A stretch of 64,000 bases of DNA from a virus (Duplodnaviria; Heunggongvirae; Uroviricota; Caudoviricetes): the IMG/VR virus record IMGVR_UViG_3300027851_000011; one strand, written 5' to 3'. This document shows, in pieces, positions 46,919 to 64,000 of this stretch; positions within the stretch are counted from its first letter, which is position 1, and each line of letters starts with the position of its first letter. The notes under the pieces are model-generated. The model did no database searches. It was not told the DNA's origin and saw only the letters and a program-made list of their open reading frames with translations. The position numbers and the translations under genes were made by a program.

Positions 46919-46920
46919 CA

Positions 46921-47413: not shown

Positions 47414-47415
47414 AA

Positions 47416-47482: not shown

Positions 47483-47496
47483 GTTCTTTTCAAACA

Positions 47497-47559
47497 GGCC
47501 GTGGCGATCGACGCAGTTACTTCTTGGAACGAAACACACTGCCCGAAACTTTCCCGGCC
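47497..47559 (+). ncRNA. Y-RNA-like element 5 (free-standing)
   Basis: GGCCG/CGGCC, TCG/CGA and GCAGT/ACTGC stems; motif at 47501. Confidence 0.75.
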
Positions 47560-47566
47560 CTTGGAT

Positions 47567-47696
47567 GGTGCAGTAGCTCAGTGGTTAGAGCACGTAAATA
47601 CCCGTCAGCAATGATCCCGCCTAACGGTGTGGCGAGCACGGCGGTTACTTCTTGTTAAGAACGTGGTCGTTGGTTCGAATCCAACCTGCACCGCCA
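47567..47696 (+). ncRNA. tRNA-scaffold/Y-RNA chimera B (element 6)
   Basis: GGTGCAG/CTGCACC + G + CCA; D and T arms; insert with the motif at 47629. Confidence 0.8.
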
Positions 47697-47732
47697 CTAC
47701 ATCTCACGCGTCAGACCAACTGACGCAGGCTT

Positions 47733-47836
47733 GGGGAGGCCGCCCAACGGCTGGGCACTCCGTCCGCATCTTTCCCGCCTTCGGGTGTGGCGAGCATGAC
47801 GGTTCCTTCCAGGTTCGAATCCTGGCCTCCCCACCA
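47733..47836 (+). ncRNA. tRNA-scaffold/Y-RNA chimera C (element 7)
   Basis: GGGGAGG/CCTCCCC + A + CCA; anticodon arm replaced by a TTCG-capped hairpin with the motif at 47787. Confidence 0.8.
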
Positions 47837-47839
47837 CGC

Positions 47840-47904
47840 GCGTCGTAGCGAGCTACTCGGTTCCTTCACTCATCGCAAGACACCGACAGCGTTTTTCTCG
47901 GCGC
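47840..47904 (+). ncRNA. Y-RNA-like element 8 (free-standing)
   Basis: GCGTCG/CGGCGC, AG/CT, GCT/AGC and TCGGT/ACCGA stems; motif at 47845. Confidence 0.7.
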
Positions 47905-47978
47905 CTTTTCCTCGACACCCATGGCCCATCGCCGTGGGTGTTTTCGTTTTTACTCACCGTACCAACCCAGGAGCCCGC

Positions 47979-48497
47979 ATGGCAACGGCCATCACCCCGA
48001 CCAACAAGAAGCCAAGGCACCACGATCCGCTCCGCGACGTGGCCGAGAAGCGCTTCGCTGAACACAAAGCCGATGCCGCGCGCAAGGCTGTCGCTGACCG
48101 CCGTGCCAAGGCGAAGTCCAACTTCAACCACGTCCTGGAGAGCGCGAAGATCGCGCTCGATGAAAATAACGAGTTCATCCTCCCTGCCGACTACTGTTTG
48201 GTGGATGTGCTCGCAGCCGGCGTCATCGGCAAACCCGTTCGTCTGGACGAAGACCGCCTCACGGTCATGGTCAACGGCAAGCGCAGCTACACCTGTGGCC
48301 GGGTGATGTTCAGCGCCACTGGCGCGATCATCGGCGTCGAGATGAAGCACATCGTGAAGACCGGGCCGAAGGGCCGCGCGTATCAGCTGATCGCGTACGG
48401 CACCGGCGTCCAGGAAAGCCAGTGGGACAAGCTCGTCATCGACTGGCATCTGCTCAACAAGAACAACACGGCGGGGTTCCCTCGCCGCATCCTCTAA
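47979..48497 (+). CDS. hypothetical protein
   Basis: AGGAG RBS; strong codon bias. Confidence 0.7.
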   Translation: MATAITPTNKKPRHHDPLRDVAEKRFAEHKADAARKAVADRRAKAKSNFNHVLESAKIALDENNEFILPADYCLVDVLAAGVIGKPVRLDEDRLTVMVNGKRSYTCGRVMFSATGAIIGVEMKHIVKTGPKGRAYQLIAYGTGVQESQWDKLVIDWHLLNKNNTAGFPRRIL

Positions 48498-48505
48498 GGA
48501 ACCCG

Positions 48506-48628
48506 ATGGACAAGTTTGGACCTCTCGTCGGTGGCGTCGTCGTCTTCGTGCTGGTCATCGCCAGCTTTGTCGTGCTTCAGCGGAAGCTCGACAAGATCGA
48601 CGCCGACATCGACGGCAAGCTGCTCTAG
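48506..48628 (+). CDS. 40-aa membrane peptide
   Basis: AAGGA RBS; one hydrophobic helix. Confidence 0.6.
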   Translation: MDKFGPLVGGVVVFVLVIASFVVLQRKLDKIDADIDGKLL

Positions 48629-48691
48629 GGTCGACTCTCGCGGCATCCAGCCGCAGACGAGGTGGACGAATCCACCATATAGGAGTCCGTC

Positions 48692-48868
48692 ATGGACGCC
48701 TCAACGACCCGAGTCAGCCCCACAAACAACGATGAGAATCCCTTCGCGATTGCCGGTGAGATCATCACGGTCGCAACTGGCATTCTCGGGATCCTCGCAA
48801 TGGGCGTGGCCTCGCTTGGGCAGACCGCCGCACAGCAGGAGCAGAAGCTGAAGGACGCAACTCCTTAG
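48692..48868 (+). CDS. 58-aa membrane peptide (not in the ORF track)
   Basis: AGGAG RBS; IITVATGILGILAMGVASL. Confidence 0.55.
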   Translation: MDASTTRVSPTNNDENPFAIAGEIITVATGILGILAMGVASLGQTAAQQEQKLKDATP

Positions 48869-49028
48869 GCCGATGCAATCCGTCTTCTGTCGTGCGGTTC
48901 CGATCGTCGTCTGTTGCTTGACGGAGCAGCAGACGACCTTTTCACAAGGAGACATACGTGGGCAACGTGCGCGTCATCCTGTAACTGGTAGAAGGCTGGA
49001 GTTGAATGTAAACGCTGTGCACAGCTAG

Positions 49029-49481
49029 TTGTCGAATGAACCCGGACGGTTCCAGCCGTTCACTACCGCAGAGAGGATCAACGTGTCGACGACACTTGAT
49101 CATCCCCAGACATCCCGCAACCTCACTCAAAAGCGGTCCCGCCACCCGCCGGCGATCCTCGGGTCCTTCCCGGACAAGAGGCACGTCGAATACTACAAGG
49201 CCCAACGGCGCGCGGAAGAATCCGCGCGACTGTGCGCTCAGCCGAAACCGTCCAAGGCCGAGCCGACGTCTGTTCCCAACGATCGCGACGACTTCGTCAG
49301 CGCCGTGATCGAACTGTTGTCGAAGCTGAAGCCGTCCAGGCCGACGCAACGGCACCAACTGCAAGGGAGCCACAACTGGTACGAACAGTTACAACAGCTG
49401 CGTGATAAGCAGCGCCGCGACCATCTGGGTCGCACGATAGAGGATGTACAAACCATTCTCCGCTTGCGCTGCGCCCCCTGA
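49029..49481 (+). CDS. hypothetical protein
   Basis: 150-aa ORF with weak codon bias; start uncertain. Confidence 0.35.
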   Translation: MSNEPGRFQPFTTAERINVSTTLDHPQTSRNLTQKRSRHPPAILGSFPDKRHVEYYKAQRRAEESARLCAQPKPSKAEPTSVPNDRDDFVSAVIELLSKLKPSRPTQRHQLQGSHNWYEQLQQLRDKQRRDHLGRTIEDVQTILRLRCAP

Positions 49482-49545
49482 AACGGGGGCGCCGTAACTT
49501 CTCTCAAGCGTGATCAACCTGCACCACAAACGAACAGGAGCACTG

Positions 49546-50085
49546 ATGAACGACATCATTCTCGCATCTGAAGTCTCTGCGCCTGTCAAGGAGGTGCAGG
49601 TTGAGCGGCTGCGAAACGAGTTCGAGGATCGCGACCAGTGGGCATCTGGCCCGTGGGACAACGAACCAGACAAACTCGACTTCGTGTGCAACGGCTTCCC
49701 GTGCATGATCATCAGGAACCCGCTCGGAGTCCTCTGTGGCTACGTCGGCATTCCTCCTGGTCACCCCTGGTACGAGAAGCACTACAACGATCTGACCGTC
49801 AGCGCGCATGGGGGACTCACGTTCAGCGACTGGTCGACGATGAAACCCGCAGAGCTTGACGCTTCCGAAGCTGTCAGGCAGTGGTGGATCGGGTTCGACT
49901 GTGGTCACGCGTTCGACATCGTCCCTGCGATGACCAAGTTCGATGTTCTCTTCGGGAGCCTGTTCGGCGGCGAGCGTGTATACCGTGACATCGCCTTCGT
50001 GAAAGCCGGGTGCGCGAGCATCGCGGCTGAAGCTATGGCTGCGTTCACGGACGCGAAGCCCGTCGAGATCCTGAAGATCGAATGA
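49546..50085 (+). CDS. hypothetical protein with CGYVG/HGGLTF/GFDCGH motifs
   Basis: LCGYVGIP..HPWY, AHGGLTF and WWIGFDCGH, a motif set recalled from other phage proteins. Confidence 0.75.
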   Translation: MNDIILASEVSAPVKEVQVERLRNEFEDRDQWASGPWDNEPDKLDFVCNGFPCMIIRNPLGVLCGYVGIPPGHPWYEKHYNDLTVSAHGGLTFSDWSTMKPAELDASEAVRQWWIGFDCGHAFDIVPAMTKFDVLFGSLFGGERVYRDIAFVKAGCASIAAEAMAAFTDAKPVEILKIE

Positions 50086-50123
50086 AAAGCTCGGGCGCCG
50101 TGCGCGGCGCCCGGCAGCTTTTC
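50086..50123 (+). terminator. intrinsic terminator
   Basis: GC-rich stem GGGCGCCG/CGGCGCCC followed by GCTTTT. Confidence 0.6.
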
Positions 50124-50162
50124 GTTACCTGGAGCGGCTAAATGGTGGATCCAGATTATGAG

Positions 50163-50185
50163 ATAAGAGTAGTACAAGGAAAAAC
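50163..50185 (+). promoter_or_regulatory. ATAAG-N5-TACAAG-NN-AAAAC element
   Basis: ATAAGAGTAGTACAAGGAAAAAC. Confidence 0.6.
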
Positions 50186-50233
50186 CATGAACCAAACGAT
50201 TCATAACCGCGTCTGCGCGATGGACGAGGCTGT

Positions 50234-50584
50234 ATGAGAGTTCGTGCCCTCTCCCGCGACATCGTCCTCGGAACCAAGCCATACGACCGTCAGCTGATGG
50301 ACTATGGCGCGCAGCCGGAACTCGTCGCTGTCCGATTCACCATTGGTCGTCGTGGTCGCCCACCACAAGGCTATGAAGCTCGCGTGTTCGCCATGGACGA
50401 GGTCGGCCGTGCAAGCCTCGCTGCCTTCCTGCTCAGCGGGGAGTGGCGTAAAGTTCCGCACGTTGTCGTGCAGACCACGATGCAGATCCACGAAGGCCGC
50501 GTCGAACTGGTGAACGAGAAGACCATGATCATCGTCGAACGTGCCGACGTTTCCGTGTTCAGTGCTTCACCACCACCAATCTAG
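50234..50584 (+). CDS. hypothetical protein
   Basis: GAGG RBS. Confidence 0.6.
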   Translation: MRVRALSRDIVLGTKPYDRQLMDYGAQPELVAVRFTIGRRGRPPQGYEARVFAMDEVGRASLAAFLLSGEWRKVPHVVVQTTMQIHEGRVELVNEKTMIIVERADVSVFSASPPPI

Positions 50585-50592
50585 GAGGCCAC

Positions 50593-51018
50593 ATGATACA
50601 GAAAGCATCGGCCTACGAAGTGCTGATACGAACTGGCCGCTCAGCGGCCCGTCTCATCGTGTCAGTTCTCACCATCAACTTCGTCGTTCACGTCATCCTG
50701 CGTACACGTGGCTCCAAGGCGCCGCACATGCAGATGCGTGACCTTCCGCTATCCCGCTTCGGCTTCACGTACCGTGGAGACAATGGAAGCTGGGAGAAGC
50801 GCTACAGCGATATGCGTCGGCTGACGACCGAGCGTACTGACGTCATTCACGTCTTGAACGACTGGATGGAATACACGACTGGGCACAATGTCCCTGTCCA
50901 ACTCCAGATCTTCACGAAGAACCTGAAGGTAAATACGAACGTCCCCGTGATCACCAGTTATGCGACGAAACGTCTTGTCCCAACATCCATACCACAACGC
51001 GTTGAGAGGAACCCATGA
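50593..51018 (+). CDS. hypothetical protein
   Basis: AGGAGG RBS. Confidence 0.65.
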   Translation: MIQKASAYEVLIRTGRSAARLIVSVLTINFVVHVILRTRGSKAPHMQMRDLPLSRFGFTYRGDNGSWEKRYSDMRRLTTERTDVIHVLNDWMEYTTGHNVPVQLQIFTKNLKVNTNVPVITSYATKRLVPTSIPQRVERNP

Positions 51019-51356
51019 GACAGCTCGCGATCCTGGCGATCGTCATCTCTTGCGGCATCGCCGCAGGAGTCATCGCCTTCTGTTCGAACAACAAACCGCA
51101 GCAACCCGCTGTCGGCGCGCTGACCGTCACGGTCGTGCTGCCGCCGGAACAAGAGGCTGAACGCATCGAGATCCAAAAGATCCTCGATACCAGCTTCCCC
51201 GGCAGTGAAGTGACGGGTTGGTGGCCTCAAGAGAAAGTGACAACGATCAGCGGCATCAACAAAACCGGCGGCCAGTTCCACGCAACGTACGACCGCATGG
51301 CCGGCACGTTGTCGCTGGAATATGATCGTGATGCAGCTGGGAGGGTTCTCCCATGA
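51015..51356 (+). CDS. membrane-anchored or secreted protein
   Basis: N-terminal hydrophobic helix; ATGA overlap. Confidence 0.65.
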   Translation: MRQLAILAIVISCGIAAGVIAFCSNNKPQQPAVGALTVTVVLPPEQEAERIEIQKILDTSFPGSEVTGWWPQEKVTTISGINKTGGQFHATYDRMAGTLSLEYDRDAAGRVLP

Positions 51357-51892
51357 ACCGAACCCAGATCGAGAACGAACTGTCGTCAAACATGACGTAC
51401 CCAGATTACAAGGTCATACTCTACAAAGATGGAGACGAGAATGACTTCAAACTACCAGCGGCAGGCTGGTACGTCACTGGTGGCCGGATAAATAAAAGTG
51501 TAGACGGCGTCACGTATAGCACCCAGCAGGAAGCTGAACAGGCACTGAGTGTGCTGGACGCGTCGACTAACGACCGAGCTGACGCGGCAGTTCGTAAAAC
51601 TGCAAGGGTGCTCTCAGCACTAGCGGGCAAAGTCATCAGGGTCCGACAGCTAGACTATGATGGCTCCGAACACAATCTCGCGAAATACACCGAGGTTCGT
51701 GTGCCGCGAAAGATCACGTGCAGTGCAGTAGAGGACGGCGATGAATACGGGTTCCTGTTCATCTCGATAGAGGTCGAACCACTATTCCTGTCTCCGGTCG
51801 TAAAGCGCTTCGTAACGCGCCCGTTCTACTCCAGTGTTTTGTTCATGAGCGCTCATCCGTTTGAGCTGACTACGTTCTACAAGCTGCCTTGA
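51353..51892 (+). CDS. hypothetical protein
   Basis: ATGA overlap; visibly more AT-rich. Confidence 0.6.
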   Translation: MNRTQIENELSSNMTYPDYKVILYKDGDENDFKLPAAGWYVTGGRINKSVDGVTYSTQQEAEQALSVLDASTNDRADAAVRKTARVLSALAGKVIRVRQLDYDGSEHNLAKYTEVRVPRKITCSAVEDGDEYGFLFISIEVEPLFLSPVVKRFVTRPFYSSVLFMSAHPFELTTFYKLP

Positions 51893-51936
51893 GCAAAATC
51901 CGGCGGCCCACGTGGGCCGCCGGTTGCTTTTCTTTA
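51893..51936. terminator. terminator at the +/- convergence
   Basis: CCGGCGGCCCAC/GTGGGCCGCCGG palindrome followed by TTGCTTTTCTTT. Confidence 0.7.
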
Positions 51937-52122: not shown

Positions 52123-52161
52123 AAAGAAAAGAGAAACCCCGGTCCTGCGACCGGGGTTCTC
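52123..52161 (-). terminator. intrinsic terminator downstream of the RNAP block
   Basis: GAGAACCCCGGTC/GACCGGGGTTTCTC followed by TTTTCTTT on the - strand. Confidence 0.75.
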
Positions 52162-52277: not shown

Positions 52278-52706
52278 TCAGCCAGCCGTCAAGGAGGCAA
52301 GTTCACAGGCCCAGAACTCAGCAACCTTCGGTGCAGCTGGCGCTGCTTCGTGGTGGCCGAACAGATGCGGAGCTTCGATCGCAGCCAGCAGTCCAAGGCC
52401 ACCGACTTCGCTCAGATCCTTCTCGCGCTCGCTGACCGCGTCCTCGCCGCTGACCCACTTGTGAATCGTTGGCTCAGCGAGGATGCCGAGGCCAGCGATG
52501 TCAGCAGCAGCACGAACGCGCGGATTCAGATCCCACGCGACCTTGGTGAGGTCTGGCAGGTCGATCGACGGGAACATGGCTTTCTTCTCCGGGAGGTTCT
52601 TGTAATCAGTCTCTGCGGACCACTCGTCGACATCGACGCCCTGCTTCTTCAGCTTCTTCTTGTTGGCGTACATGAAGCGCTGCTGGGCCTTGGACTTGAA
52701 CGGCAC
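52278..52706 (-). CDS. small protein with MPFKSKAQ N-terminus and EFWACEL motif
   Basis: MPFKSKAQQRFMYAN...LPEKK domain, then DLTKVA and a hydrophobic segment. Confidence 0.75.
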   Translation of the reverse strand: MPFKSKAQQRFMYANKKKLKKQGVDVDEWSAETDYKNLPEKKAMFPSIDLPDLTKVAWDLNPRVRAAADIAGLGILAEPTIHKWVSGEDAVSEREKDLSEVGGLGLLAAIEAPHLFGHHEAAPAAPKVAEFWACELASLTAG

Positions 52707-52707
52707 G

Positions 52708-55700
52708 TTAGGCTCCAGTCTCGGCTTCTGCCGTCTTGTGGAATGCGCTGTCGAACAGCGGCGCCGGACGGAACGTGGCTCCGTATGCCAGACCAGCGAT
52801 CGGCGACGCGCTGCCAGTCAGATCGCTGCTGCCAGCACTCGAAGACACATCACGGATGCTGTCGTCGAGACGCTGGAAGTTCAGGCGCGCGAGCAGATCC
52901 TTCGATTCGAGCGGCTTGTGGCTCAGGCCAAGCAGCACCGGCTTCGCTTCGATCTTGCTGTTCTTCGCGTGCAGCGCGTTGAACTCGTTCTCGTGCATGA
53001 CGTCACCGACCGAAATGCTCGGCTCTCCGCCATCGTCGGTGATCTCGACCGTGCGCATCAGACCAGCGGCGAGCACCTCGATCACCGGCTTGCGCACGGT
53101 AGCACCAGCGGCCTCGTAGCTCTTGCGGATGTCATTGACGACGTAGCGCTGAGCAGCGAGGCCGCCCTGGAGAGCTGCGATCTCCTGCGGACGGTAGTTG
53201 CCGTCGGTGATCGGCTGGCCCTTGGTCACGCGGTCACCGACGTTCACCTTCATGTTGCGGTTGGCCGGCACGTAGTGCTCGACAGTCGGGCCACTCGTCG
53301 GGCGCACGGTGACATAATAGCCGCCCTGCGGCGCGATGCGCTTGTCGCTGACCGTGCCAGCGACCTGTGCGAGCACGCCCTGGTCCTTCAGCTGCTCAGG
53401 CGTGCTGAGCAGATCCTTCAGACGTGCGAAGCCGTCAGTCAGACTGTCGCCAGATCCGATCGTACCACCGCTGTGGAACGCCTTCATGATCAGCTGCGTC
53501 GAACGCTCGCTGACCGACTGGCCGTAGTTGTAGCCGATGTTCGAGCCGATCGGGTGCAGCTTGCCCTGCGCGTCACGGCCAGCGCACATCTGGCACGGAA
53601 CATGAAGCGACTTGCAAGTCATGGGGCTGCGAACCATCACGTCCTTCAGGCCCTTGTCGCGAAGAACCGACAGGACGTGCGGCGTGATCGGATCGTTGCG
53701 CTTGAAGCCAGCGACGTCGTTGAGCAGATGCCGATCGAGCAGATCCACATCAGCTTCGTTCAGCGGCTCGTCGATGCCGACCTTCGTTCCGCAGTCCTTC
53801 TCCATCACGCGGATGTCACCGACGTTGCCAGCGACTTCCTTGGCAAGGAAGCCGGGCAGCGCAGTGGAACGGGAACGGGCCACGAGGCCCTTTCGCGCAC
53901 CAGGGGTGACCATGACGTAGTCGCTGGGCGACATGCCACCAGCGTAGCTCGACGTGATGACATTCGGCACGAGCTTGTCATTCACATCGGTCACAGCGAG
54001 CGGGGTCGCCAGCACCTGCTTCATCTGGTCGATCTTCTTGTTCGACTCGCTGACGACGAAGCTGTGGTAGCCCTCGTTGGTCTCTTCGAGGTGCTTCTTC
54101 ATGATGTCCGTCAGCTGGTCGCTCACGGCCTTCTGCTTCGACGAGAAGATCTTGCGGCGCTCTTCGATCGTCGAACCCTTGCGCACCTCATTGTCGAGCT
54201 GAGTCAGCAGTCGGTTGATCTTGGAGCGGTCCACGACCAGCTCCTTGATCGACGAGGTAATGCCGCCGGCTGCCGCTGCGAACTCGAAGCCGGCCTGTGA
54301 GATGCGGCGGCTGATGAGGTTGTAGTCAGCCGGCGAGTCAGTGGCGATGCGCTCCAGCAGCTTGTCGAGCTTCTTGCCGGTGATCGGCGCGCTGATGCCA
54401 GCGAGGAACCGCTTCGGGACAATCTCTTCGAACATCAGCCAACCGACAGCGATCGGATTCGGGTTGCCCTCGATCTTCACGAGGCTCCCCATCTGGAGGC
54501 TGTCTTTGTTGTTGCGGTAGGCGTCGATCGCATCGGCCGCCGTCTTGTAGCTCTTGCCACTCGGCGACCCCGGAGATGTCAGCGCGAAGATGCCGCTGAT
54601 GATGTCCTTGCTCACGCCGTAGGCGAGGCCCTTGTTCCGGTCATAGATCAGATTCTTCGACGGCAGCAGCTTGAAGGACTCGTTCTTCGCTGCGTCAGTG
54701 ATCGGCGTGAAGATCGACATCGTGTCGCCGTCGTAGTCGGCGTTGAACGGCCCGCACACCAGCGGGCTGATCTTCACTTCCTTGCCCTCGCTGATGCGCG
54801 GCATGGCCGCAGCGATGCCCCAGCGGTGCAGGGTGGGCGCGCGGTTGTAGAGGACTGGGCGCTCCTTCATCTCGGCGTCGAGTGCCTGCCGGGCGGCCAG
54901 CGTGCGCTTCTCGACCTGTTCCGCAGCTTCGGCCGGCTGCCAACCGCCCTGCGACATGCGGCGAACGATGCTGGGCTTGTAGATCTTCCAGGCCATGTCC
55001 TCCGGGATCGAGATCTCATCGACGCCGAGGTTGCTGTCGGGTTCGATGGTCGACCGGCCGCTGTAGTCGTTGCGGTGTGCGACGACGAGGCGCTGGAAGA
55101 GGCCCTCCTTGTTGCGCTTGCCCTTGATGATGTCGATGAACCCGCTGGCGTCCTCGCGGTCGTCGCGATGGGTGAGCGGGTTGTTCACGCCGATGAGTGC
55201 GCCGAACGCCTCGTAGGCGTGCTTGCGCGCTTCGGTCTGCATGCTCTTCGGCAGGCCAGCGGACTTCGCGTCGGCAAGCGACTTCGTGGTGAGCAGCAAA
55301 TCGCGGTACAGCAGGTTGCTGTCTGCCACGCGCAGTGCTCCACCAGACATCTCGATGATCGGACGGAACTTCGGCGGGATCACCGGCACCGTCTTGGTCA
55401 TGTAGGCTTCGAACGGATCGAGATCCGACGTCTTCAGGCCGCGCAGGTAGCGAACGGCGCGGTTGTACTTGTTGGCGTCAGAGCCAACAGCAGTGCGCAG
55501 CTTCTGGCGAAGATCGCGGATCTTGCTGTCGACGTTGAAGTCGAGCACGTGCTTGAAGGCAGCCTCGCCGGTGACGCGCCCCTCACCGGGTTCGTCGACG
55601 ATCTTGCCGGTCTTCGGGTCATACCAGCGTGAGTGCATGATCAGACCGTAGAACTCGGCCTGCTTCAGCCCGGTGATGTCGCGCAGGGTCTTCTCGTAGA

Positions 55701-58700
55701 GCGGATGCGGGACGCGCTCATCCAGCTCGATGTGCGCCCACTTCTCACCCTTCAGGCCACCCGTGGTCTCGACGTCGTAGAGGCCACCGGCCTCTTCAGC
55801 GAGATCCTTGGAGCGGATGATCGACGCGTTCTCGACCTTGCCGTTGGACAGCGCACGGACGCGCTTCTCGGTCATCGGCATGTAGTGGAGGGTGTTGCCC
55901 TTCTTCTGCGTGTCGACGCCGGCAGCGTTGAGGAACGTGCGGAACTTCTCGAAGGCGAACGGCACCTTCGGAGGCGGCGGCTGCTCGCCAGCCTGATAGG
56001 CGTGCCAGAACTCGTCGTTCTTCGTGCCACGAATACCAGCAGACTCACTGAGGATCGCGTGGGCGTCATGGCCGAGAAGCGCGTAGGTGGTCAGGTGGTC
56101 GAAGCTCTGGCCGCCCTTGCCAGCGCCACGCGTCGGCGTCTCGTCCATGGTGTAGCTGTCACGCTCGCGTGCAGAGAACTTCTTCCGCACCGGATGGTCC
56201 AGCTTGAACATGTAGTTGTAGCCGACGGCGACGGGGCGCTCGATCCACTTGCCAGTCTGCGGGTCGAACAGCTTCTCAGAATGGCTGAGGCCCTTCTTGT
56301 CCAGCGCGTCGGAGATCTCCTTGGCGTGGTCGCGACCATCGAAGTTCGCGAACGAGTAGGAGCCCTTGCCGTCGCGGACGAGCTTGCCAGCCGCTGACTC
56401 GATGGTCTGGCTGGGGTTCATGCGGTTGACGATGCCGTGCGGATTGAGGATGACCTCGATGTGCTTCTTGTCAGCCGTCTGCGGCATCTCGTGATCGGGA
56501 ATCACTGCCGAGATCGTGCCCTTGGCCGCGCTGCTCATCGACAGCTTGTCGCCGACACGTGCCGGCTCTTCGGTCTGGAGATGCACTTCGATGTGGTCGT
56601 CGCGCACCAGGACGCGCTTCACGACACCAGGGAAGTCCTCAGTCCACACCACCATGCGGTCCTTGTAGGGCCGCAGCAGTGCCTTGTGGATGTTGCCGAG
56701 GTTCTTCGCCGTGCGATCCTGCGAGTCGACCTCGGTCTTCTGCACCGCAGCGACGAGGACGTCGCCGGGCACGACGCTCGAACCGTTCTTGATGATTCCC
56801 TTGTCGTCGAGCTTGGCGAAGCTGTCCTTCGTGAACTTGGTTGGGAACTGCGCGTAGGCGAGCTTCTTGTCGACCTTGATGTCGGGCTCAAGGTCGATCG
56901 ACTCGCGGTGCACGTGCAGCGACGTGAACTTCTTCGCAGCGCTCTCGCTGATAGCGATGGCGTCCTCGAAGTTCAGCGCGTTCTTCCACGGCATGTAGGC
57001 GCTGCGCACGTTGACGCCGAGTGCCAGCTTGCCCTCGCGGCTGTAGTTGCTGTCAGCGAGCAGCTGCCCCTTCTTCACGACGTCGCCAACCTTGACGACT
57101 GGCACATGGTCGATCGCGACCTTGGCCTGCATCGGGTAGTTGTCGAACAGCTCGTGCTTCACACCGGCGACGACGATCTCTTTCTTGGTGACCTTCTCGA
57201 CCTTGCCAGCGACCTTCGAGCGGATGACGAAGTAGTCGCCGATGACCTCACCCATGGCCGTGCCGAAGCCATCGGTCATATTCACCAGCGGCAGCTCGCG
57301 ATTGATCAGGGGCAGCGCCTGCGTGATGTGCTTGCCGCTCATCATGCCACGGTTGGCGTGCGTGTGATCGAAGAACAGCGACGAGTTGCTGGCGTGGTCG
57401 AACATCGCACGCCCGGACGGGATGACGTACTCGACCTCGGAGGCTGGGACGACCGTGATCTCACCGTCGACGTTGGCACGCACCTTGGCAGCTTTCGGCT
57501 TCCCGTCCTCGCCCTTGCCGACGTTCCAGTACTCGGGATAGCCGACGATGTGGCTGTTGGCCTCGGTGGTGTCGAGCCACGTGAGCTTGCCGATCTTGCC
57601 GTTCTCGACCTTGTAGAACAGCGACTTCATCTTGTCGCCGTCCTTGATCGCGTTCACAGCGAGGTGCGTGGTTACGCCGATCTCGCTGCCTTCAGGCGTG
57701 TGCACGCTGTCGATGAAGCCGGCGCTGCCAGGGCGGAAGAGGCGGGCCTCGTTGGTGATGGCCGTGTCGTCCTTGATGCCGCCCTCGCCCTTCAGCGTGA
57801 CCTTGCTGTTCTCAGAGAGGATGGCGAGCGGGTTGGCTGCTTCGGCGGTGTTGGCGAGGCCGCCTTCGATGCCGGCACGACCACCATAGAAGCCGACGGT
57901 CGCGCCATTGAGCCAGCCAGTTCCGAACGCCTGGGCGAGCGTAGCCGTCGGCTTCAGCAGACGGTTCTGCACCCGGCGCTGGAGCATGCGCGTCATCTTG
58001 GTGATGCGCGCAGGGATCATGTCGTCGACATGGTGCAGCGTCTTGAACTCGACGTTGTCACGGTCGTCAGGCTCTTCAGCACCGCGCTGCACACCGAGGA
58101 TGCGCTTCGAAGCGAGCAGCAGGACATCGAGGCCAGCGTGCGAGAGTTCGTGGCCGAGCGTGCGCTTGGTGACGTACGGATCGAGTTCCTTGCTCGACAG
58201 CCACGTCTTGATCGCCGCTACCTGACCAGCGGCGTCGACGTTGTCGAACTCGGTATCCTTCTCGACGATGCCGGCGCGAATCAGTTCCTTGTTCTGCTTG
58301 TGCGACACGACTGACTTGAAGAACTTCTCGACGTCAGCTTCACGGGCCTTCGTCTGGTTTACAGCCAGCAGTTCGCGCGCTTTCTTGTCACCACCCCATG
58401 TGTCGACGATCTGGTCGTCTGTCGCACCGAGCGCACGAACGATCGCATACCAGCTGACCGTCGAGTCCCAGACGCCGATCTTGAAGATGCCGGTCTCAGG
58501 GTCCATGAACACCTTGAGCTGGCCGCCCTTCATCAGGATGAAGGTCTCGAACTCGCCGTTGGTCTTCTGCCGGGTGTACGCGCCGGGCTTCAGGCGCAGC
58601 TGCATCGGCGTGAAGTAGTCGTTGCCACCAACCATCATCGTGCCGAGCGCACCCATCAGCGGCAGCGAACCGAGGTTGAAGCTCTTCAGCGTCTGCACGA

Positions 58701-59016
58701 CCTTGCCGTCACGTGACAGGGTCAGGTCAGCCACGATCCGGCCGCCGAGGGTCTGCCGCCCCTGTCGGGCGTCCTGCCACGCGTTCAGGCCATCGGGGTC
58801 GAACTTGCTGTCGTCGATGCGGACGTTGGCCGCCTCGACCTTGACGTTCGAGCCCTCAATCGGGAAGAGGCCCTGCACGGCTTTTACCGTGCCGGCCTTC
58901 ATCGCCGGGTTGACGAGCGAGTCGCGCCTGGGGATCGTCGGCAGGGCCTGGGTCGCGACCTTGAGCGCGTATTCCAGGTGAATCAGGCGGTAGGGATCGA
59001 GCCGTTTCGGTTGCAC
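52708..59016 (-). CDS. DNA-directed RNA polymerase, fused beta-beta' single polypeptide
   Basis: Beta motifs FEDAIAIS, GDKL...KG, ILNPHG; beta' motifs YSGRSTI, YNRAPTLH, FNADYDGDTM, QLIMKAFHSGG; one continuous 2102-aa frame. Confidence 0.95.
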   Translation of the reverse strand: MQPKRLDPYRLIHLEYALKVATQALPTIPRRDSLVNPAMKAGTVKAVQGLFPIEGSNVKVEAANVRIDDSKFDPDGLNAWQDARQGRQTLGGRIVADLTLSRDGKVVQTLKSFNLGSLPLMGALGTMMVGGNDYFTPMQLRLKPGAYTRQKTNGEFETFILMKGGQLKVFMDPETGIFKIGVWDSTVSWYAIVRALGATDDQIVDTWGGDKKARELLAVNQTKAREADVEKFFKSVVSHKQNKELIRAGIVEKDTEFDNVDAAGQVAAIKTWLSSKELDPYVTKRTLGHELSHAGLDVLLLASKRILGVQRGAEEPDDRDNVEFKTLHHVDDMIPARITKMTRMLQRRVQNRLLKPTATLAQAFGTGWLNGATVGFYGGRAGIEGGLANTAEAANPLAILSENSKVTLKGEGGIKDDTAITNEARLFRPGSAGFIDSVHTPEGSEIGVTTHLAVNAIKDGDKMKSLFYKVENGKIGKLTWLDTTEANSHIVGYPEYWNVGKGEDGKPKAAKVRANVDGEITVVPASEVEYVIPSGRAMFDHASNSSLFFDHTHANRGMMSGKHITQALPLINRELPLVNMTDGFGTAMGEVIGDYFVIRSKVAGKVEKVTKKEIVVAGVKHELFDNYPMQAKVAIDHVPVVKVGDVVKKGQLLADSNYSREGKLALGVNVRSAYMPWKNALNFEDAIAISESAAKKFTSLHVHRESIDLEPDIKVDKKLAYAQFPTKFTKDSFAKLDDKGIIKNGSSVVPGDVLVAAVQKTEVDSQDRTAKNLGNIHKALLRPYKDRMVVWTEDFPGVVKRVLVRDDHIEVHLQTEEPARVGDKLSMSSAAKGTISAVIPDHEMPQTADKKHIEVILNPHGIVNRMNPSQTIESAAGKLVRDGKGSYSFANFDGRDHAKEISDALDKKGLSHSEKLFDPQTGKWIERPVAVGYNYMFKLDHPVRKKFSARERDSYTMDETPTRGAGKGGQSFDHLTTYALLGHDAHAILSESAGIRGTKNDEFWHAYQAGEQPPPPKVPFAFEKFRTFLNAAGVDTQKKGNTLHYMPMTEKRVRALSNGKVENASIIRSKDLAEEAGGLYDVETTGGLKGEKWAHIELDERVPHPLYEKTLRDITGLKQAEFYGLIMHSRWYDPKTGKIVDEPGEGRVTGEAAFKHVLDFNVDSKIRDLRQKLRTAVGSDANKYNRAVRYLRGLKTSDLDPFEAYMTKTVPVIPPKFRPIIEMSGGALRVADSNLLYRDLLLTTKSLADAKSAGLPKSMQTEARKHAYEAFGALIGVNNPLTHRDDREDASGFIDIIKGKRNKEGLFQRLVVAHRNDYSGRSTIEPDSNLGVDEISIPEDMAWKIYKPSIVRRMSQGGWQPAEAAEQVEKRTLAARQALDAEMKERPVLYNRAPTLHRWGIAAAMPRISEGKEVKISPLVCGPFNADYDGDTMSIFTPITDAAKNESFKLLPSKNLIYDRNKGLAYGVSKDIISGIFALTSPGSPSGKSYKTAADAIDAYRNNKDSLQMGSLVKIEGNPNPIAVGWLMFEEIVPKRFLAGISAPITGKKLDKLLERIATDSPADYNLISRRISQAGFEFAAAAGGITSSIKELVVDRSKINRLLTQLDNEVRKGSTIEERRKIFSSKQKAVSDQLTDIMKKHLEETNEGYHSFVVSESNKKIDQMKQVLATPLAVTDVNDKLVPNVITSSYAGGMSPSDYVMVTPGARKGLVARSRSTALPGFLAKEVAGNVGDIRVMEKDCGTKVGIDEPLNEADVDLLDRHLLNDVAGFKRNDPITPHVLSVLRDKGLKDVMVRSPMTCKSLHVPCQMCAGRDAQGKLHPIGSNIGYNYGQSVSERSTQLIMKAFHSGGTIGSGDSLTDGFARLKDLLSTPEQLKDQGVLAQVAGTVSDKRIAPQGGYYVTVRPTSGPTVEHYVPANRNMKVNVGDRVTKGQPITDGNYRPQEIAALQGGLAAQRYVVNDIRKSYEAAGATVRKPVIEVLAAGLMRTVEITDDGGEPSISVGDVMHENEFNALHAKNSKIEAKPVLLGLSHKPLESKDLLARLNFQRLDDSIRDVSSSAGSSDLTGSASPIAGLAYGATFRPAPLFDSAFHKTAEAETGA

Positions 59017-59025
59017 CGCAGAATC

Positions 59026-61428
59026 CTACGGGCTCTTAGAAACCGTGCTACTGAAGGCTTTCGCCTGATTCTGGCGGGCGTCGTACTGGTAGAACTGCTG
59101 GGACGAAGCATTGACTGGCGTGTTTGCTTCCGTCAGGTTTTCCTTCATCGACTGCTTCTTGGCCTTCTCATCGTCGGTGCACAGGTCGTTGAAGTTCATG
59201 TTCATGATGTCGTTGATCATGCCGATCAGCTTGATGATCTTGGCAATGCGCTGATTGTCCTCGATCTTGGCGGCCACACGGGGTGCGCCATCGAACGACT
59301 TCATGTTGGTGCTCTTAGACTCCTGGGTGGAGGCGTCTGGCTCAATGCGCTCCAGCACCTCCACCGAAAGGGTGTTGAGCACCGGGCTGTCACAGTTGGC
59401 GACGAGGCACTTGATACCCTTGATGATGAGGCCGATCGCCGAGCTGTCGCCGAGTAGGTCAGACAGACGCAGGTTCATCACCGCGTCCTTCAGGTTGGCG
59501 AAGGTGTTGAGGATCTGCTTCAGGTTCTGATAAAGCGCGACTGCATTGGAGATCGCCGAGAAGACAGCCATCAGCTGTTCGAGCCCAAAGAACATGTGCT
59601 GCTTCATGCACACGAGGAACTTCTGGCGGTCGCTGATGGCGAGACGCAGCTCCTTGATCGCGATGGCGATCTCCTGTTGGGCACCAGGAAGCCCTGCGAT
59701 GCGGTTCTGCGATGCACGCATCAGGTCATTGACCTGTGCGATGATCCGCTGACCGCCGCGCTTTGGATCAGTCGTGCCTGCGCACTGGCCGGCATCGAAC
59801 CGCTCGACGACGGCCATGATGACGCGCATCACGGCTCCCTGGCCAGCGAGGATGCGGTCGATGAAGTTGAACGTCCCAGGCAGCAGCTGCATCACGCGGC
59901 ACAGGATCGTGAGCCACATGTACGCGGCTGCTTGGCTCGACATGTACGACCAGACGTCGAAACGGTCGTCGGCCTTCTGGTAGTATTTCTGCACCTCAGC
60001 GTCGACACGCTTGCGCATCTCGGCTTCCGGCAGCTCGCCGTACTTGTCCGTGATGTAGTTCGCCATGAAGTCTTTGTACTTCGTGACGTCCGTGGTCTTG
60101 ACGCTGTTCGTTCCGATCTGATTGCCTGCGTCGTCGAACACAGGCTCGTTGTACGTGAACTCAGGCAGGCTCGTGGCGCCAGAGCCAGTCAGTTCGAGAT
60201 CGCGACGAACGCCGCTCACAGCGTTCTTCACCATTAGGATCAGCGGCCCGAGCAGCTTCCCGATGTGGACGTTCGTCATCGCCTTGATGTTGTCGACGGC
60301 CGAGACGATGTTGCTGTAGAGCATCACGATCTGGTCGTCTTGGTTCTTCACCTGCTGCGCCAGACGCATGATCGCGTCGATCTTCATCTTGTACGTAGCA
60401 GCCGGCAGCATGTGCGTCATGCCGACGTCACCTGCTTTGTACGAGAGTGACTGAATGCCGGTGAAGTTCGACAGATGGCCGAGCGCCGTCTTGCCGATGT
60501 CCATGTCGCCGTCGTAGATGATCTTCTGGGCCTCACAGATCTTGTCAGACGCGTACCCGAGCATTGAGCGATCGAGTACGTCATTCTTCGTGATCTTCTC
60601 ATAGGCGATGCGCAGCGCTTCTTCGGCTTCACAGAGATCGAGCACCGTCGCAGCGTTCGGAAGCGTGACGTCGATTTTGATCGGCGCCTTGCTCGCAGAC
60701 TCAGCTATGTCGATCGAGAGCTTCTTCAGGCGGCGTAGGGCATACAGTTCCGAGTCGATTGCAGGGATGCCGTACTCGAATGCGTAGATGAAGATGCCGA
60801 GCAGGTTGCCCTCGGCGTCTGGGCCGAGGAACAGCTTCTGGAGCGACTGGAGGACGTTGTTCTTGAAGTCGTTGAAGAACGAGCCTGACTGCCCAGCGTC
60901 CAGCTGGCTGGCCATCGCGTTCATCGTCTGGCTCAGCATCTGCCCCTGCGTCTTCAGGAAGAGCATGAACGGATTCATCAGCGAATCCTTCATCTCCGAG
61001 AAGAAGCTGTCGAGCTGGTCCAGCAGATCTGGTCCTTCACCGGGCAGAATGATGTCGCCGAGCAGGCTGAAGGCGTCCTTGAACGGCTTCATCATTGCGT
61101 CGCGCATCTTCTTCAGCATGTCGTTGTCTGCTGAGTTCTCCGGCAGCGCGAAGTACGCGGTGGCGCCGAGCGCCAAGTCGACGAAGCACGGAACAGTCCC
61201 GAGCCCCGGCGGCAGGAAGCCGTAGCCGATGTTCAGAAGATCACGACCGCTCTGGATGCTGCTGAGGGTCCCGACGATCTCGGTCGTCACGCCGACTGCG
61301 TCGGACATCGCATTCGACAGCTTCTCGGCTGGGCTGTCGCCTACTGCACCGTATTCGTCGGTGCTCAGCTCGTCGTTGACCGTCTCCTTGATCTGAGACG
61401 TCGTGTCCTTCAGGAGCGGGCTGGCCAT
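59026..61428 (-). CDS. 800-aa helical hypothetical protein
   Basis: Long ORF between the sigma and RNAP genes; no recognised motif. Confidence 0.7.
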   Translation of the reverse strand: MASPLLKDTTSQIKETVNDELSTDEYGAVGDSPAEKLSNAMSDAVGVTTEIVGTLSSIQSGRDLLNIGYGFLPPGLGTVPCFVDLALGATAYFALPENSADNDMLKKMRDAMMKPFKDAFSLLGDIILPGEGPDLLDQLDSFFSEMKDSLMNPFMLFLKTQGQMLSQTMNAMASQLDAGQSGSFFNDFKNNVLQSLQKLFLGPDAEGNLLGIFIYAFEYGIPAIDSELYALRRLKKLSIDIAESASKAPIKIDVTLPNAATVLDLCEAEEALRIAYEKITKNDVLDRSMLGYASDKICEAQKIIYDGDMDIGKTALGHLSNFTGIQSLSYKAGDVGMTHMLPAATYKMKIDAIMRLAQQVKNQDDQIVMLYSNIVSAVDNIKAMTNVHIGKLLGPLILMVKNAVSGVRRDLELTGSGATSLPEFTYNEPVFDDAGNQIGTNSVKTTDVTKYKDFMANYITDKYGELPEAEMRKRVDAEVQKYYQKADDRFDVWSYMSSQAAAYMWLTILCRVMQLLPGTFNFIDRILAGQGAVMRVIMAVVERFDAGQCAGTTDPKRGGQRIIAQVNDLMRASQNRIAGLPGAQQEIAIAIKELRLAISDRQKFLVCMKQHMFFGLEQLMAVFSAISNAVALYQNLKQILNTFANLKDAVMNLRLSDLLGDSSAIGLIIKGIKCLVANCDSPVLNTLSVEVLERIEPDASTQESKSTNMKSFDGAPRVAAKIEDNQRIAKIIKLIGMINDIMNMNFNDLCTDDEKAKKQSMKENLTEANTPVNASSQQFYQYDARQNQAKAFSSTVSKSP

Positions 61429-61429
61429 A

Positions 61430-62179
61430 TCAGACCCTGCTCATGTGCATGTTGAGCTTGTCGGCGATCGACGTGCGCAGCTGAGACACGCGTCCTGCGC
61501 TCATCTTCAGCTTCGAGGCAATCTCGTTGTTCGACAGCTTCTGCTTTCCGTGCGCGCCGAGGCTGTAGTCGAACACCTGCTGCTCGTCGGGCGTGAGGCT
61601 GTAGTAGGCCAGCATCGCGCGCTCGTAGTTCTCGTCGTGCTCGAACTGCGACAGCTCGTCGAAGCCACCAGGGCCTGACTGAAGCAGGTCGCGCCGCATC
61701 ATCTTCTCCAGCTTGGTCACGTGCTTCAGCGGAACGCCGAGGTGGTCCGCGATCTCAGCAGACGATGGGTCGCGGCCCATCTTCTGCGTCAGGTCGCTGA
61801 CAGCGGCTCGGTACGGAGCGATCTGCTGAATCTTGGCCTCGGGGATGCGCGCGACGTTCTGGTGCATCCCGTTGTAGCGGTAGAGCTTGTTCTTCACCGC
61901 CGTCAGCACGTAGGTGCTGAGGTTGGTGCTGCGGCTCGGGTCGTATTCCTGGAGTGCTTCGACAGCGTAGATCTTGCCCTGCGTCTCCAGAATCGGACGA
62001 GCGACGGGGCTGCCGCTCGTGTACATGTTCACTGCCGTCATGATCGGACCCATGAGGCTCTGCATGAGTGCTTCGAGCGCCTGCTCCTTCTTGTAGCCGA
62101 CGGCGTTCTTCCACTCCTTGAACATGCGCTGGTCACGGGCAGCAGGCGACTCGGCACCTGGGGTACTGAAAGAATCCAC
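61430..62179 (-). CDS. sigma-70 family factor (SigF/FliA-like architecture)
   Basis: Region 2 EALQEYDPSRSTNLSTYV; region 3 MGRDPSSAEIADHLG; region 4 LTPDEQQVF...SNNEIASKLKMSAGRVSQL. Confidence 0.88.
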   Translation of the reverse strand: MDSFSTPGAESPAARDQRMFKEWKNAVGYKKEQALEALMQSLMGPIMTAVNMYTSGSPVARPILETQGKIYAVEALQEYDPSRSTNLSTYVLTAVKNKLYRYNGMHQNVARIPEAKIQQIAPYRAAVSDLTQKMGRDPSSAEIADHLGVPLKHVTKLEKMMRRDLLQSGPGGFDELSQFEHDENYERAMLAYYSLTPDEQQVFDYSLGAHGKQKLSNNEIASKLKMSAGRVSQLRTSIADKLNMHMSRV

Positions 62180-62181: not shown

Positions 62182-63939
62182 TCAGCCCTCCGTGATGCCG
62201 GCGTTGATTGCTGCCTTGATCATCCGTGCCGCATTCTGGCGGATAGGCGAGAGGAAGCTAGTGCCCTTGCTGAGAACATAGGAGAAATCAGCAGAAGCCA
62301 GCTCGTACGGCCCGTACGCATTGGCACCAGAGGCCGACTTCATCAGCACCATGCGCTGCGGCGCAGCGAAGAGCTTGTGTGCACCAGTTCCCGAGCTGTC
62401 GAGGTCGTCGGGCTCGGCACGGCCGAACGCGAAGTCGGGATCTCCTGCGTCACCGGCCTTCGTCTTCTGCACGCCGGGCAGTGCATGGAACTCAGCGTAC
62501 TGGCTGAGCGAGACGCCTGGGCGGTACTGGTATTCGAGTGCAGCGCGGCCGGGGTCCGGCGAGCTGTGGATGTTGGCCGCGATGGTGCTGCCCACTGGCT
62601 GCGAAGCCATGCTGAAGTCTTTGGTGTACGACGGAACGTTCATCACCAGTCGAGCCAGCTCGTCCAGGTTGATCTGTTTCGTCGCGTACTCGCTCTTGTT
62701 CGACGCGCTCTCGGTGATGTTCTGCAATGACTTCATGATGAGGTCAGTCGGCAGCATAGCCGAGTGCCCACCAGCAGCTGCACCACCGGACGACGAGTTC
62801 ACATTCGACACCTTGGACACGTTGGTGCCGAAGACGACGTTGTACGCGTTCTTCTCGATGCGGTCGGGATAGAACTTGTCGCAGATCCACGACGCGAGCG
62901 GCACGTTGCGAAGCCGTTCGTCCACTGCATAGGCTTCGCGGACATGGCTGATCTGCAACGAGGTCGAAGGCGCACCAGTCGCGCTGATGATGTGCGTGAC
63001 CGCGCTGATGATCCCCCAGAACGGCCCAGTCTTGTCTTCGATCAGGCACGGGAAGCCGACGGCCACATACGGAAGGAACGTGCACGTCACGTTGGCTGAC
63101 CGGGCGCCTGCACGAACGGCCTCGAAGTGCGTGCGCGCAGCGGCCTGGACGTACTCGATGTAGTCGCGCTCTTTGATCGTGGCGCCCGTGCGTGTCTGAT
63201 CCGGCGGCAGCTTCAGCGGATCGGTGCTGACCGCCGGGCCGAAGTTCTCCATCGGCAGCGACACGAAATGCGGGATGACACCGCGATGGTATTCCTCGGT
63301 CGTCAGGAGGTCATGGGTAGCACAGATGCCAGCGCGCATGCCGGGCGCACTGTGATCGTTCCTGAACGAGATGCTCGACTGCTTGATGATCGAGTTCGTC
63401 ACGATCGCACGTTCGACGCTGTTCACGACGACGAAGGCCGGGACTTGGACGTTTCCAGCGACGGCGCCGGTCTCGATCTGCGCAATGACGCGCGTCGGCT
63501 CAGCCAGGAAGTTGCGCGTCGCGCTGATGTCCACGATCTGATCAGTGAAGATCACGTTGCAGGCAGGAGGAATGGCGCCGTACAGGTGGGGGATGAACAG
63601 CATCTCAGGGATGCGATAACCCGAACCGACGACGGCGTTGTTGTCAGCTGCCTTCGCTCCCGTCAGGTTGACCATGGGCGGCGCGAGCAGCGGAACGTGG
63701 TGGTAGAGGGCGACGTTCTCAAGCTCCCCGATGATGCGAGAGAGCGTCTTGCCCTGCGACTGCTCACGGCCGATACCAGTCATCATCATGTTCAGCAGCT
63801 CAACGTTCAGCCGCTGCGTGATCTGAACGTCAGCGAACGCGAAGGTCTTGTTCGCGACTGCTCGTGCAGAGTGGTAGAAGGTGTCGACGGGCGACTGCTT
63901 CACCATCGCGTCGATGAGCGACATCAGCATGATCGACAT
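62182..63939 (-). CDS. putative baseplate hub/tail protein; frame stays open to the window edge
   Basis: PPACNVIF...RSANVTCTFLPYVAVGFPCLI; call rests on resemblance and context. Confidence 0.5.
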   Translation of the reverse strand: MSIMLMSLIDAMVKQSPVDTFYHSARAVANKTFAFADVQITQRLNVELLNMMMTGIGREQSQGKTLSRIIGELENVALYHHVPLLAPPMVNLTGAKAADNNAVVGSGYRIPEMLFIPHLYGAIPPACNVIFTDQIVDISATRNFLAEPTRVIAQIETGAVAGNVQVPAFVVVNSVERAIVTNSIIKQSSISFRNDHSAPGMRAGICATHDLLTTEEYHRGVIPHFVSLPMENFGPAVSTDPLKLPPDQTRTGATIKERDYIEYVQAAARTHFEAVRAGARSANVTCTFLPYVAVGFPCLIEDKTGPFWGIISAVTHIISATGAPSTSLQISHVREAYAVDERLRNVPLASWICDKFYPDRIEKNAYNVVFGTNVSKVSNVNSSSGGAAAGGHSAMLPTDLIMKSLQNITESASNKSEYATKQINLDELARLVMNVPSYTKDFSMASQPVGSTIAANIHSSPDPGRAALEYQYRPGVSLSQYAEFHALPGVQKTKAGDAGDPDFAFGRAEPDDLDSSGTGAHKLFAAPQRMVLMKSASGANAYGPYELASADFSYVLSKGTSFLSPIRQNAARMIKAAINAGITEG

Positions 63940-64000
63940 CGGCGACTTGGTGTTCTTCTCGGTCGCGAGGAATGCCGCAAGGCTCGTTTGGAGTTTCGAC

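Follow-up and report, generated by a model that had tools for sequence, protein, structure and literature searches.

The 64,000-nucleotide stretch of DNA analysed here (the window, IMG/VR record IMGVR_UViG_3300027851_000011) is part of a 200,766-bp metagenomic contig in the European Nucleotide Archive (ENA) assembly and stems from an uncultured tailed phage of about 200 kb. Its minus strand encodes an RNA polymerase (RNAP) of 2102 amino acids (aa) in which beta and beta' are joined in one chain and, two genes upstream, a 249-aa factor of the sigma-70 family. The analysis confirmed that the 2102-aa open reading frame (ORF) is a seamless beta-to-beta' fusion with intact catalytic machinery. Taken as catalytic core and cognate sigma factor, the two proteins would, on balance, probably constitute a holoenzyme of two polypeptides, able to read phage promoters independently of the host polymerase.

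The domains of the fused chain are those of beta followed by those of beta'. Indeed, standard Pfam domains of both subunits match at E values of 1e-10 to 1e-52: Rpb2_3 (aa 391-456) and Rpb2_6 (aa 632-956; E 1.7e-52) represent beta, and Rpb1_1 (aa 1205-1300, below the cut-off), Rpb1_2 (aa 1370-1450) and Rpb1_5 (aa 1694-1994) then follow in the same frame for beta'. With the RpoB and RpoC sequences of Salmonella, numbered as in E. coli, BLASTP gives a collinear alignment in which aa 10-1037 correspond to beta 20-1338 and aa 1084-2068 to beta' 93-1346, and a family profile prolongs the match on the beta' side as far as about residue 28 of that subunit. The Pfam order and this alignment bear out the original prediction, made from the sequence alone, of a single 2102-aa ORF with beta motifs, then beta' motifs and no stop between them. 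The joint, at aa ~1037-1050 (~55.87-55.91 kb), lies where the junction had been placed, near 55.9 kb, and the NADYDGD loop occupies exactly the position given for it (Table 1). At the joint, the last beta helix continues into beta' near beta' residue 17, nearly without a linker.

Key residues of the active centre are kept in the aligned relatives. In particular, D1427, D1429 and D1431 of the catalytic loop are invariant across 45 aligned relatives, and D823, K824, K832 and G833 of the beta active site (GDK...KG motif) are invariant in the family alignment, where the RHGN part of that motif is not retained. Conservation reaches at least 90% at the second zinc site (C1742, C1801, C1808, C1811), and clamp helices, bridge helix and trigger loop can still be recognised, in alignment with Salmonella beta' 255-335, 765-805 and 920-945. 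By the same alignment, the 2102-aa protein is devoid of the proteobacterial inserts SI1 and SI2 of beta and of the trigger-loop insert SI3 of beta'. The N-terminal Cys4 zinc ribbon of beta' is missing as well, since the equivalent of aa 1040-1100 contains no cysteine in any of 80 family members and a short cysteine-free loop stands in its place. In the equivalent of the rifampicin pocket the contact residues are mostly replaced (Q513N, D516E, H526E, R529K, S531T), and this remodelling leads to the prediction that the phage polymerase, and hence phage transcription, would be insensitive to rifampicin.

The polymerase is not an isolated curiosity: its family counts hundreds of proteins from metagenomic phages. 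Homologues were searched in a collection of 5.8 billion proteins, and the figures given here cover the best 120, all of which score above 1000 bits and whose contigs reach 204 kb and come from several sources. Eighty of them measure 1900-2130 aa. Another 36 exceed 2300 aa, mostly with intein or homing-endonuclease domains (PF14528, PF05204, PF14890, PF03161); homologues P0010-P0014, P0019-P0021 and P0042-P0044 are examples of this type. Across 80 intein-free relatives the joint sequence is conserved, and in every one of them the equivalent of aa 1020-1100 measures 76-87 residues. Split versions among close relatives were sought as shorter proteins, and nothing but fragments from short contigs came up.

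Among cultured phages, the closest relatives (~29% identity) are Arash, of Salmonella, and D69, D148 and D181, of Vibrio. Arash and D69 share with the window the beta/beta' joint, an orthologous sigma factor (28-31% identity), the lack of an alpha gene and a single polymerase per genome. Unlike in the window enzyme, the part of their beta' beyond the catalytic half is encoded by a second gene (about 1525 + 606 aa); between the two pieces stand nine genes in Arash and, in the Vibrio phages, either two small genes or a homing endonuclease. Moreover, their sigma gene is more than 100 kb away from the polymerase, which follows the portal gene, and the 800-aa and 740-aa orphans of the window's operon have no place there. 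The Arash paper lists 'beta', 'beta-prime' and 'sigma' among the virion proteins and does not mention the fusion (PMC10585845). Cobetia phage Carin-5 (PV155638; cultured, 155 kb) resembles the window in having sigma directly upstream of compact polymerase genes (operon at L015 2814-9639: annotated sigma 196 aa, beta 1083 aa, beta' 927 aa), but beta and beta' are separate genes, thus making it a split counterpart; the published Carin-5 paper does not discuss the polymerase.

The relationships among these enzymes were assessed by a quick maximum-likelihood tree from the concatenation of beta with beta' (31 rows, 2003 columns, LG+G4) with three bacteria as the assumed outgroup, to be read within the limits of three bacteria only, of a long Carin-5 branch with 48% of the columns filled and of a sampling without the published sequences of the phage clade mReC. 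All phage sequences, whether fused or from Arash, D69 and Carin-5, lie across a fully supported branch from the bacteria (Shimodaira-Hasegawa-like approximate likelihood ratio test, SH-aLRT, 100). The split Carin-5 enzyme branches first, in a placement that is unsure, while Arash, D69 and 25 fully fused proteins form one clade (SH-aLRT 98), in which the fully fused set groups together, though weakly supported (84). Read most simply, beta and beta' were fused once at the base of the clade, and beta' was broken again later in the line of Arash and the Vibrio phages. The homing endonuclease found between the polymerase pieces in D148 and D181 suggests how the break of the Arash type arose.

Two rival explanations concern the fused gene itself. 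The single ORF might be an artefact of assembly or sequencing, namely a pseudo-fusion of adjacent rpoB and rpoC genes, as the metagenomic origin of the sequence and one relative with an in-frame stop inside the gene could suggest. That relative, L005 (IMG/VR UViG_3300014208_000053; 53% identity), carries a single TAG at 12401-12403 that replaces the AAG of the invariant active-site lysine (GDK) and leaves ORFs of 815 and 1302 aa; the gene is intact, at 2120 aa, in L020, with near-identical gene order, and the TAG probably reflects either a mistake in sequencing or a defective variant. An artefact is effectively refuted because 80 intein-free homologues, which come from many different samples and sources, all conserve the joint and have no stop in it, because two assemblies agree (ENA and Logan, 100% identical over 11,123 bp with the same genes, possibly from the same reads), and because the finished genomes of the cultured phages Arash and D69 show the same joint. 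The GC content at third codon positions (GC3), 0.85 and even along the whole ORF, also speaks against it, and its probability is practically nil; the family-wide conservation of the joint thus excludes the alternative that the original prediction had itself raised. The gene might instead have been captured recently from a bacterium with fused rpoBC, of the Helicobacter or Wolbachia type, and be carried as a host-derived passenger, and the order and the joint are indeed those of the bacterial fusions. However, identity to bacterial RpoB and RpoC is only ~26%, the quick tree puts a fully supported branch between the phage proteins and its three bacterial references, the compact size and the family-wide lack of a zinc ribbon are not traits of bacteria, and the surrounding phage has its own large terminase (34909-36597), tail sheath (15221-17833) and head-protease-like gene (28196-29593). 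A recent capture is therefore highly improbable.

The second component was also recovered as predicted, that is as a complete sigma-70-like gene two genes upstream of the polymerase. Pfam Sigma70_r3 and r4 match its product above the cut-off and r2 below it, the NCBIfam model TIGR02937 (sigma-70 superfamily) reaches 44.1 bits against a cut-off of 42.9, and phmmer against the PDB retrieves RpoS and RpoD, with aa 33-178 corresponding to sigma-70 residues 374-518. The AlphaFold model (predicted local distance difference test, pLDDT, 81) displays three helical domains and a disordered 3.2-like linker at aa 163-176, and matches solved structures of sigma-D, sigma-B, sigma-S and sigma-A over its full length (~250 columns) with a Foldseek probability of 1.00. 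Judged by profiles and predicted fold, the 249-aa protein belongs to the sigma-70 family, is of a size like that of group 3 and has the domains sigma2, sigma3 and sigma4 in order. Its own family comprises 39 members, purely metagenomic, on contigs shared with fused RNAPs. An orthologue occurs in all five relative records searched, where the sigma identities (60/42/35/31/28%) track those of the polymerase (66/53/38/29/29%). Among these records, the gene lies close to that of the polymerase only in the window's own subclade (L003, L005, L020).

As to the remaining subunits of the bacterial enzyme, none of 60 window proteins scanned matched the Pfam families of alpha or omega, in keeping with the original claim that the window has no gene for either. 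The alpha families PF01000 and PF01193, which as a control were matched in 14 of 14 cellular genomes, were likewise not found in the five relative records, among them the complete genomes of Arash and D69, and this shows that the relative phages do not encode alpha. The phage enzyme may be independent of host alpha, but this does not follow from the missing genes. The fusion alone does not remove the requirement either, because the fused beta-beta' enzyme of Helicobacter still uses alpha.

How the pair would operate can be outlined from the bacterial enzymes and from Arash. The single-chain core and sigma would assemble into a phage-specific holoenzyme in which sigma2 may dock on the retained clamp helices of beta' and sigma4 on a flap-tip-like helix, as in bacteria, while the covalent joint would take over the role of the alpha dimer in assembly, so that phage alpha and omega would not be needed. 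Polymerase and sigma would be made late, packed in the capsid and delivered with the DNA, where they would start early transcription. A single chain would ensure delivery at 1:1 and would re-fold easily once ejected. The subunits of a packaged multisubunit enzyme have to find each other again when they have been delivered (Sokolova review of jumbo-phage polymerases, 2020, PMC7598289), a problem that fusion solves, and this provides a rationale for it. In its fullest form, the scheme has the capsid carry the complete two-polypeptide holoenzyme without alpha or omega and inject it with the DNA, which would make early transcription host-independent and rifampicin-insensitive, the joint having evolved to survive packaging, ejection and re-folding; we regard this as possible and put it forward tentatively. 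The compact, bacterial-like two-component system of the original prediction thus stands as far as its anatomy is concerned (single-chain beta-beta', sigma in the operon, no alpha or omega gene), while the pairing of sigma with the polymerase, the independence of alpha and the packaging are what we infer.

The packaging part of the scheme takes its evidence from Arash, in which mass spectrometry of purified particles identified Gp206 as the most abundant protein (3516 spectra, 100% coverage) together with Gp216 and the sigma factor Gp10 (100% coverage), with the authors' caution that abundant enzymes may co-purify with particles (PMC10585845). Gene neighbourhoods give a second line of evidence. 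Indeed, a portal-like gene lies just upstream of the polymerase in Arash (L001 5977-7716), D69 (L002 5982-7763) and two distant metagenomic subclades (L021 5287-7170, L022 6447-8429); these genes have 25-51% identity to the Arash portal, and one of the four has a weak SPP1_portal match. A portal profile search found no homologue in the window. The original prediction had placed the window's polymerase inside the late-gene block, a claim that is supported only indirectly: the neighbours of the gene are orphans and a 10.6-kb cassette on the opposite strand (41283-51892) stands between the operon and the head/terminase module, but in a 53%-identical relative the operon is found beside that module, in the same orientation, with three opposite-strand genes between the sigma-RNAP operon and the terminase module. 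By analogy, late expression and packaging of this phage's polymerase are plausible.

Several points weigh against the scheme. The sigma gene is far from the polymerase in the subclades of ~33-38% identity and in Arash and D69, and the binding of sigma to the polymerase in this phage is deduced from sequence; a complex prediction (sigma against aa 700-1440) scored 0.68, but one unrelated-protein control scored 0.72, so that this result speaks neither for binding nor against it. Host alpha and omega could be borrowed, as the searches took in phage DNA only, and the window rather than the full parent contig. The packaging and activity of this polymerase are argued from analogy, the transfer from Arash is a long extrapolation because identity is only 29%, and late expression is not established because the operon neighbours are orphans. 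There is also precedent for a different use of sigma, since the phage factors T4 gp55 and SPO1 gp28 redirect the host core enzyme to phage promoters. The sigma of the window might do the same, the phage polymerase being real and using another factor, perhaps the 800-aa orphan, or none. This account gains from two facts that count against the proposed pair, namely that most phage sigma factors act on the host core and that the characterised phage multisubunit polymerases, those of phiKZ and AR9, use factors unlike sigma-70 in sequence (PMC7598289, PMC13282480), as well as from the sigma genes that do not adjoin the polymerase in more distant subclades. It has to face, however, the presence of sigma and polymerase together in all five relative records, diverging in step, the position of sigma in the polymerase operon both here and in Carin-5, the retention of the beta' clamp helices, which are the main docking site of sigma, and the occurrence of sigma together with the polymerase in the Arash virion. 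In addition, the records of Arash, D69 and G002 lack the 800-aa orphan, which is therefore no general initiation factor. Action of sigma on the host core appears distinctly unlikely. A further alternative leaves the holoenzyme as proposed and changes its timing: it would be made only after infection, for middle or late genes, while the host polymerase reads the early genes and nothing is packaged. The sigma-70-type bipartite word described below, which precedes four plus-strand genes and could be read by the host polymerase, is consistent with this, as is the fact that the proteomic basis for packaging lies in Arash and is subject to the co-purification caveat of its authors. Against it stand the abundance and full coverage of Gp206 and the full coverage of sigma in Arash particles, the polymerase gene directly after a portal-like gene in four distant relatives, the mere three opposite-strand genes between operon and terminase module in the close relative, and the single polymerase per genome in the relatives, with no early/late pair. 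An enzyme made only after infection is rather unlikely, though it deserves serious attention, and the phage-specific holoenzyme of fused polymerase and sigma is the reading we prefer.

The 800-aa protein encoded between sigma and the polymerase had no match in Pfam, PHROG or NCBIfam, and the protein atlas gave nothing over chance level. A deep search retrieved only its own family, with 46 clusters of 700-850 aa. Its AlphaFold model (pLDDT 62) is nearly all helix and, compared with the PDB and BFVD, produced only weak generic matches to long helices, such as those of tape-measure proteins (template modelling, TM, score about 0.1). Its gene is present in L003, L005 and L020.

With regard to promoters, a simple k-mer enrichment search gave nothing clear. 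Inspection revealed a bipartite promoter-like word, CTAAA-N20-ATAAG, on the plus strand at 41252-41281, 41705-41734, 44299-44328 and 50138-50167. All four sites have identical spacing, are intergenic and lie upstream of plus-strand genes, and at three of the four, TACA(c/a)G(G/A)AAAAC and a start codon come next. Shuffled sequences are expected to give 0.01 matches, a statistic that is post hoc, as the pattern was derived by inspection of the same sites. The geometry of this putative promoter fits a sigma-70-family -35/-10 arrangement. The word is absent from the other loci compared, including the upstream part of the L018 RNAP operon.

The gene map of the window was guided by GC3, and genes were also called on the parent contig. 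In the minus-strand operon, the 740-aa orphan, sigma, the 800-aa orphan, the 2102-aa RNAP and a 142-aa gene succeed each other with intergenic gaps of 1-9 bp (Table 1), and more same-strand orphans, of 787 and 1022 aa, lie upstream on the parent contig. The order orphan-sigma-orphan-RNAP is kept in L003 (66% identity) and in L005 and L020 (53%). The gene upstream of sigma, originally taken as 585 aa, is cut by the window edge and in the parent contig proves to have 740 aa. Its product had no match in Pfam, PHROG or NCBIfam and is unrelated to the Arash-type portal profile (hhalign probability 0.1); it is encoded directly upstream of sigma in L003, L005 and L020 too. For a role as a baseplate-hub protein the atlas features gave no more than a weak hint (0.88, within the noise range).

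Table 1. Features of the polymerase operon, in window coordinates
Feature	Position	Strand	Basis or remark
740-aa orphan, 3' part (first operon gene visible)	62182..63999	-	start beyond window edge; full length from parent contig
Sigma-70-family factor (predicted), 249 aa	61430..62179	-	Pfam, NCBIfam, PDB phmmer, AlphaFold/Foldseek
800-aa all-helical orphan between sigma and RNAP	59026..61428	-	no family match
Fused beta-beta' RNAP, 2102 aa, GTG start	52708..59016	-	ORF; same gene called on parent contig
Beta module, aa 1-1037	55906..59016	-	Rpb2_3, Rpb2_6; alignment to Salmonella beta 20-1338
Rifampicin-pocket equivalent, aa 384-414	57775..57867	-	alignment to Salmonella beta 508-538
Beta/beta' joint, aa ~1038-1049	55870..55905	-	family alignment; Salmonella beta C-terminus and beta' N-terminus
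Beta' module, aa 1050-2102 and stop codon	52708..55869	-	Rpb1_1, Rpb1_2, Rpb1_5; Salmonella beta' 93-939 and 1127-1346
Short cysteine-free loop in place of beta' N-terminal zinc ribbon, aa 1081-1094	55735..55776	-	alignment to Salmonella beta' 58-100
Catalytic loop NADYDGD, aa 1425-1431	54724..54744	-	motif position
142-aa gene, last of operon	52278..52706	-	ORF and GC3 map; called on both assemblies
Terminator-like hairpin, 11-bp stem and T-rich tail	52134..52159	-	consensus scan, pattern match only

The 142-aa gene starts 1 bp past the RNAP stop, and its product has a weak match to PHROG 1375, a group whose function is not known. The terminator-like hairpin, ~120 nucleotides beyond this gene, is the probable end of the operon, judging from its pattern. 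Another terminator-like hairpin, at 51900-51923, is a perfect 10-bp palindrome flanked on either strand by a T-rich tail, and the two hairpins, both GC-rich, occupy the convergent gap between the plus-strand cassette and the RNAP operon. When 46 smaller window proteins, including those of the cassette, were run in one Pfam batch, seven families were matched in total: MYG1 exonuclease, TROVE (Ro60), PD-(D/E)XK nuclease, helicase C-terminal domain, DnaJ, DUF2800 and VWA_CoxE. A signature FWAxE...KxA recurs in four proteins of the virion module (12916-13899, 13902-14468, 19780-20979 and 29590-30240; minus strand), at varying positions (aa 3, 38, 146 and 225), and the C-terminus of the 142-aa product has a partial copy (EFWACEL). 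As a packaging signal it is unusable, since the polymerase and sigma do not have it.

The family is large, conserved and experimentally untouched, and it has cultured cousins in Salmonella (Arash) and Vibrio (D69), so that the questions it raises are directly testable. If the pair does work alone, it would be the smallest known bacterial-type holoenzyme and would open to direct test the real need for alpha and omega, the co-evolution of sigma-core recognition outside cells, and the packaging and ejection of a 230-kDa enzyme. It could also serve as an orthogonal, sigma-programmable transcription system.

Among known systems, the fusions of bacterial rpoB and rpoC in Helicobacter and Wolbachia share with the window the head-to-tail junction of the beta C-terminus with the beta' N-terminus. 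The bacterial RpoBC proteins are full-size (about 2900 aa), have retained the zinc ribbon and function together with alpha2 and omega, whereas the window enzyme has 2102 aa and no zinc ribbon, and no alpha gene is found in its neighbourhood or in its relatives. Single-chain two-barrel polymerases also exist in phages, and none among crAss-like gp66, SPbeta YonO and the tape-measure-fused RNAP of P23-45 (PMC10770324) is known to use a sigma-70-family factor. Some enzymes of this type are delivered with the virion. Unlike the window enzyme, the single-chain enzymes named are so divergent that standard beta/beta' profiles miss them (PMC7481178). The polymerases of phiKZ and AR9 are two-barrel phage enzymes without alpha and omega, too, and one set of them is packaged and injected (PMC7598289, PMC13282480). 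They differ in consisting of 4-5 highly divergent polypeptides, with two enzymes per genome, and their promoter factors gp68 and gp226 have no sequence similarity to sigma-70, whereas the window has one enzyme, one chain and a predicted sigma-70-family factor.

A related published description is that of mReC (multisubunit-RNAP-encoding Caudovirales; Weinheimer and Aylward 2020, PMC7481178), phages whose bacterial-type polymerases form a deep clade. As in the window, its members are uncultured tailed phages of ~50-280 kb whose compact, alignable beta and beta' stand apart from cellular enzymes, but in one part of the paper's table every row lists a separate beta (~920-1560 aa) and beta' (~900-1370 aa), and the paper mentions neither a fusion nor a sigma factor in these phages (PMC7481178). 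The window terminase matches the mReC terminase family PF03237 (27.1 bits), and no window protein matches the mReC capsid family PF07068 at E <= 0.001, the window's capsid gene itself not being recognised; as this comparison uses the published description rather than mReC sequences, membership of the window enzyme in the clade is not established. A literature search, in which subscription journals were not covered, found no description of a full phage rpoB-rpoC fusion or of its pairing with sigma. Phage bacterial-type polymerases as such were thus already known, and what distinguishes the present system is that beta and beta' are completely fused, that the zinc ribbon has been lost and that a putatively cognate sigma-70-family factor shares the operon. 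Reviews from 2020 to 2026 describe phage multisubunit polymerases without homologues of sigma, alpha and omega on the one hand and large phages that encode sigma without a polymerase on the other (PMC13282480, PMC7824862). The fused-polymerase family breaks this dichotomy, as it places a close-to-bacterial single-chain core alongside what appears to be a true sigma-70-family factor.

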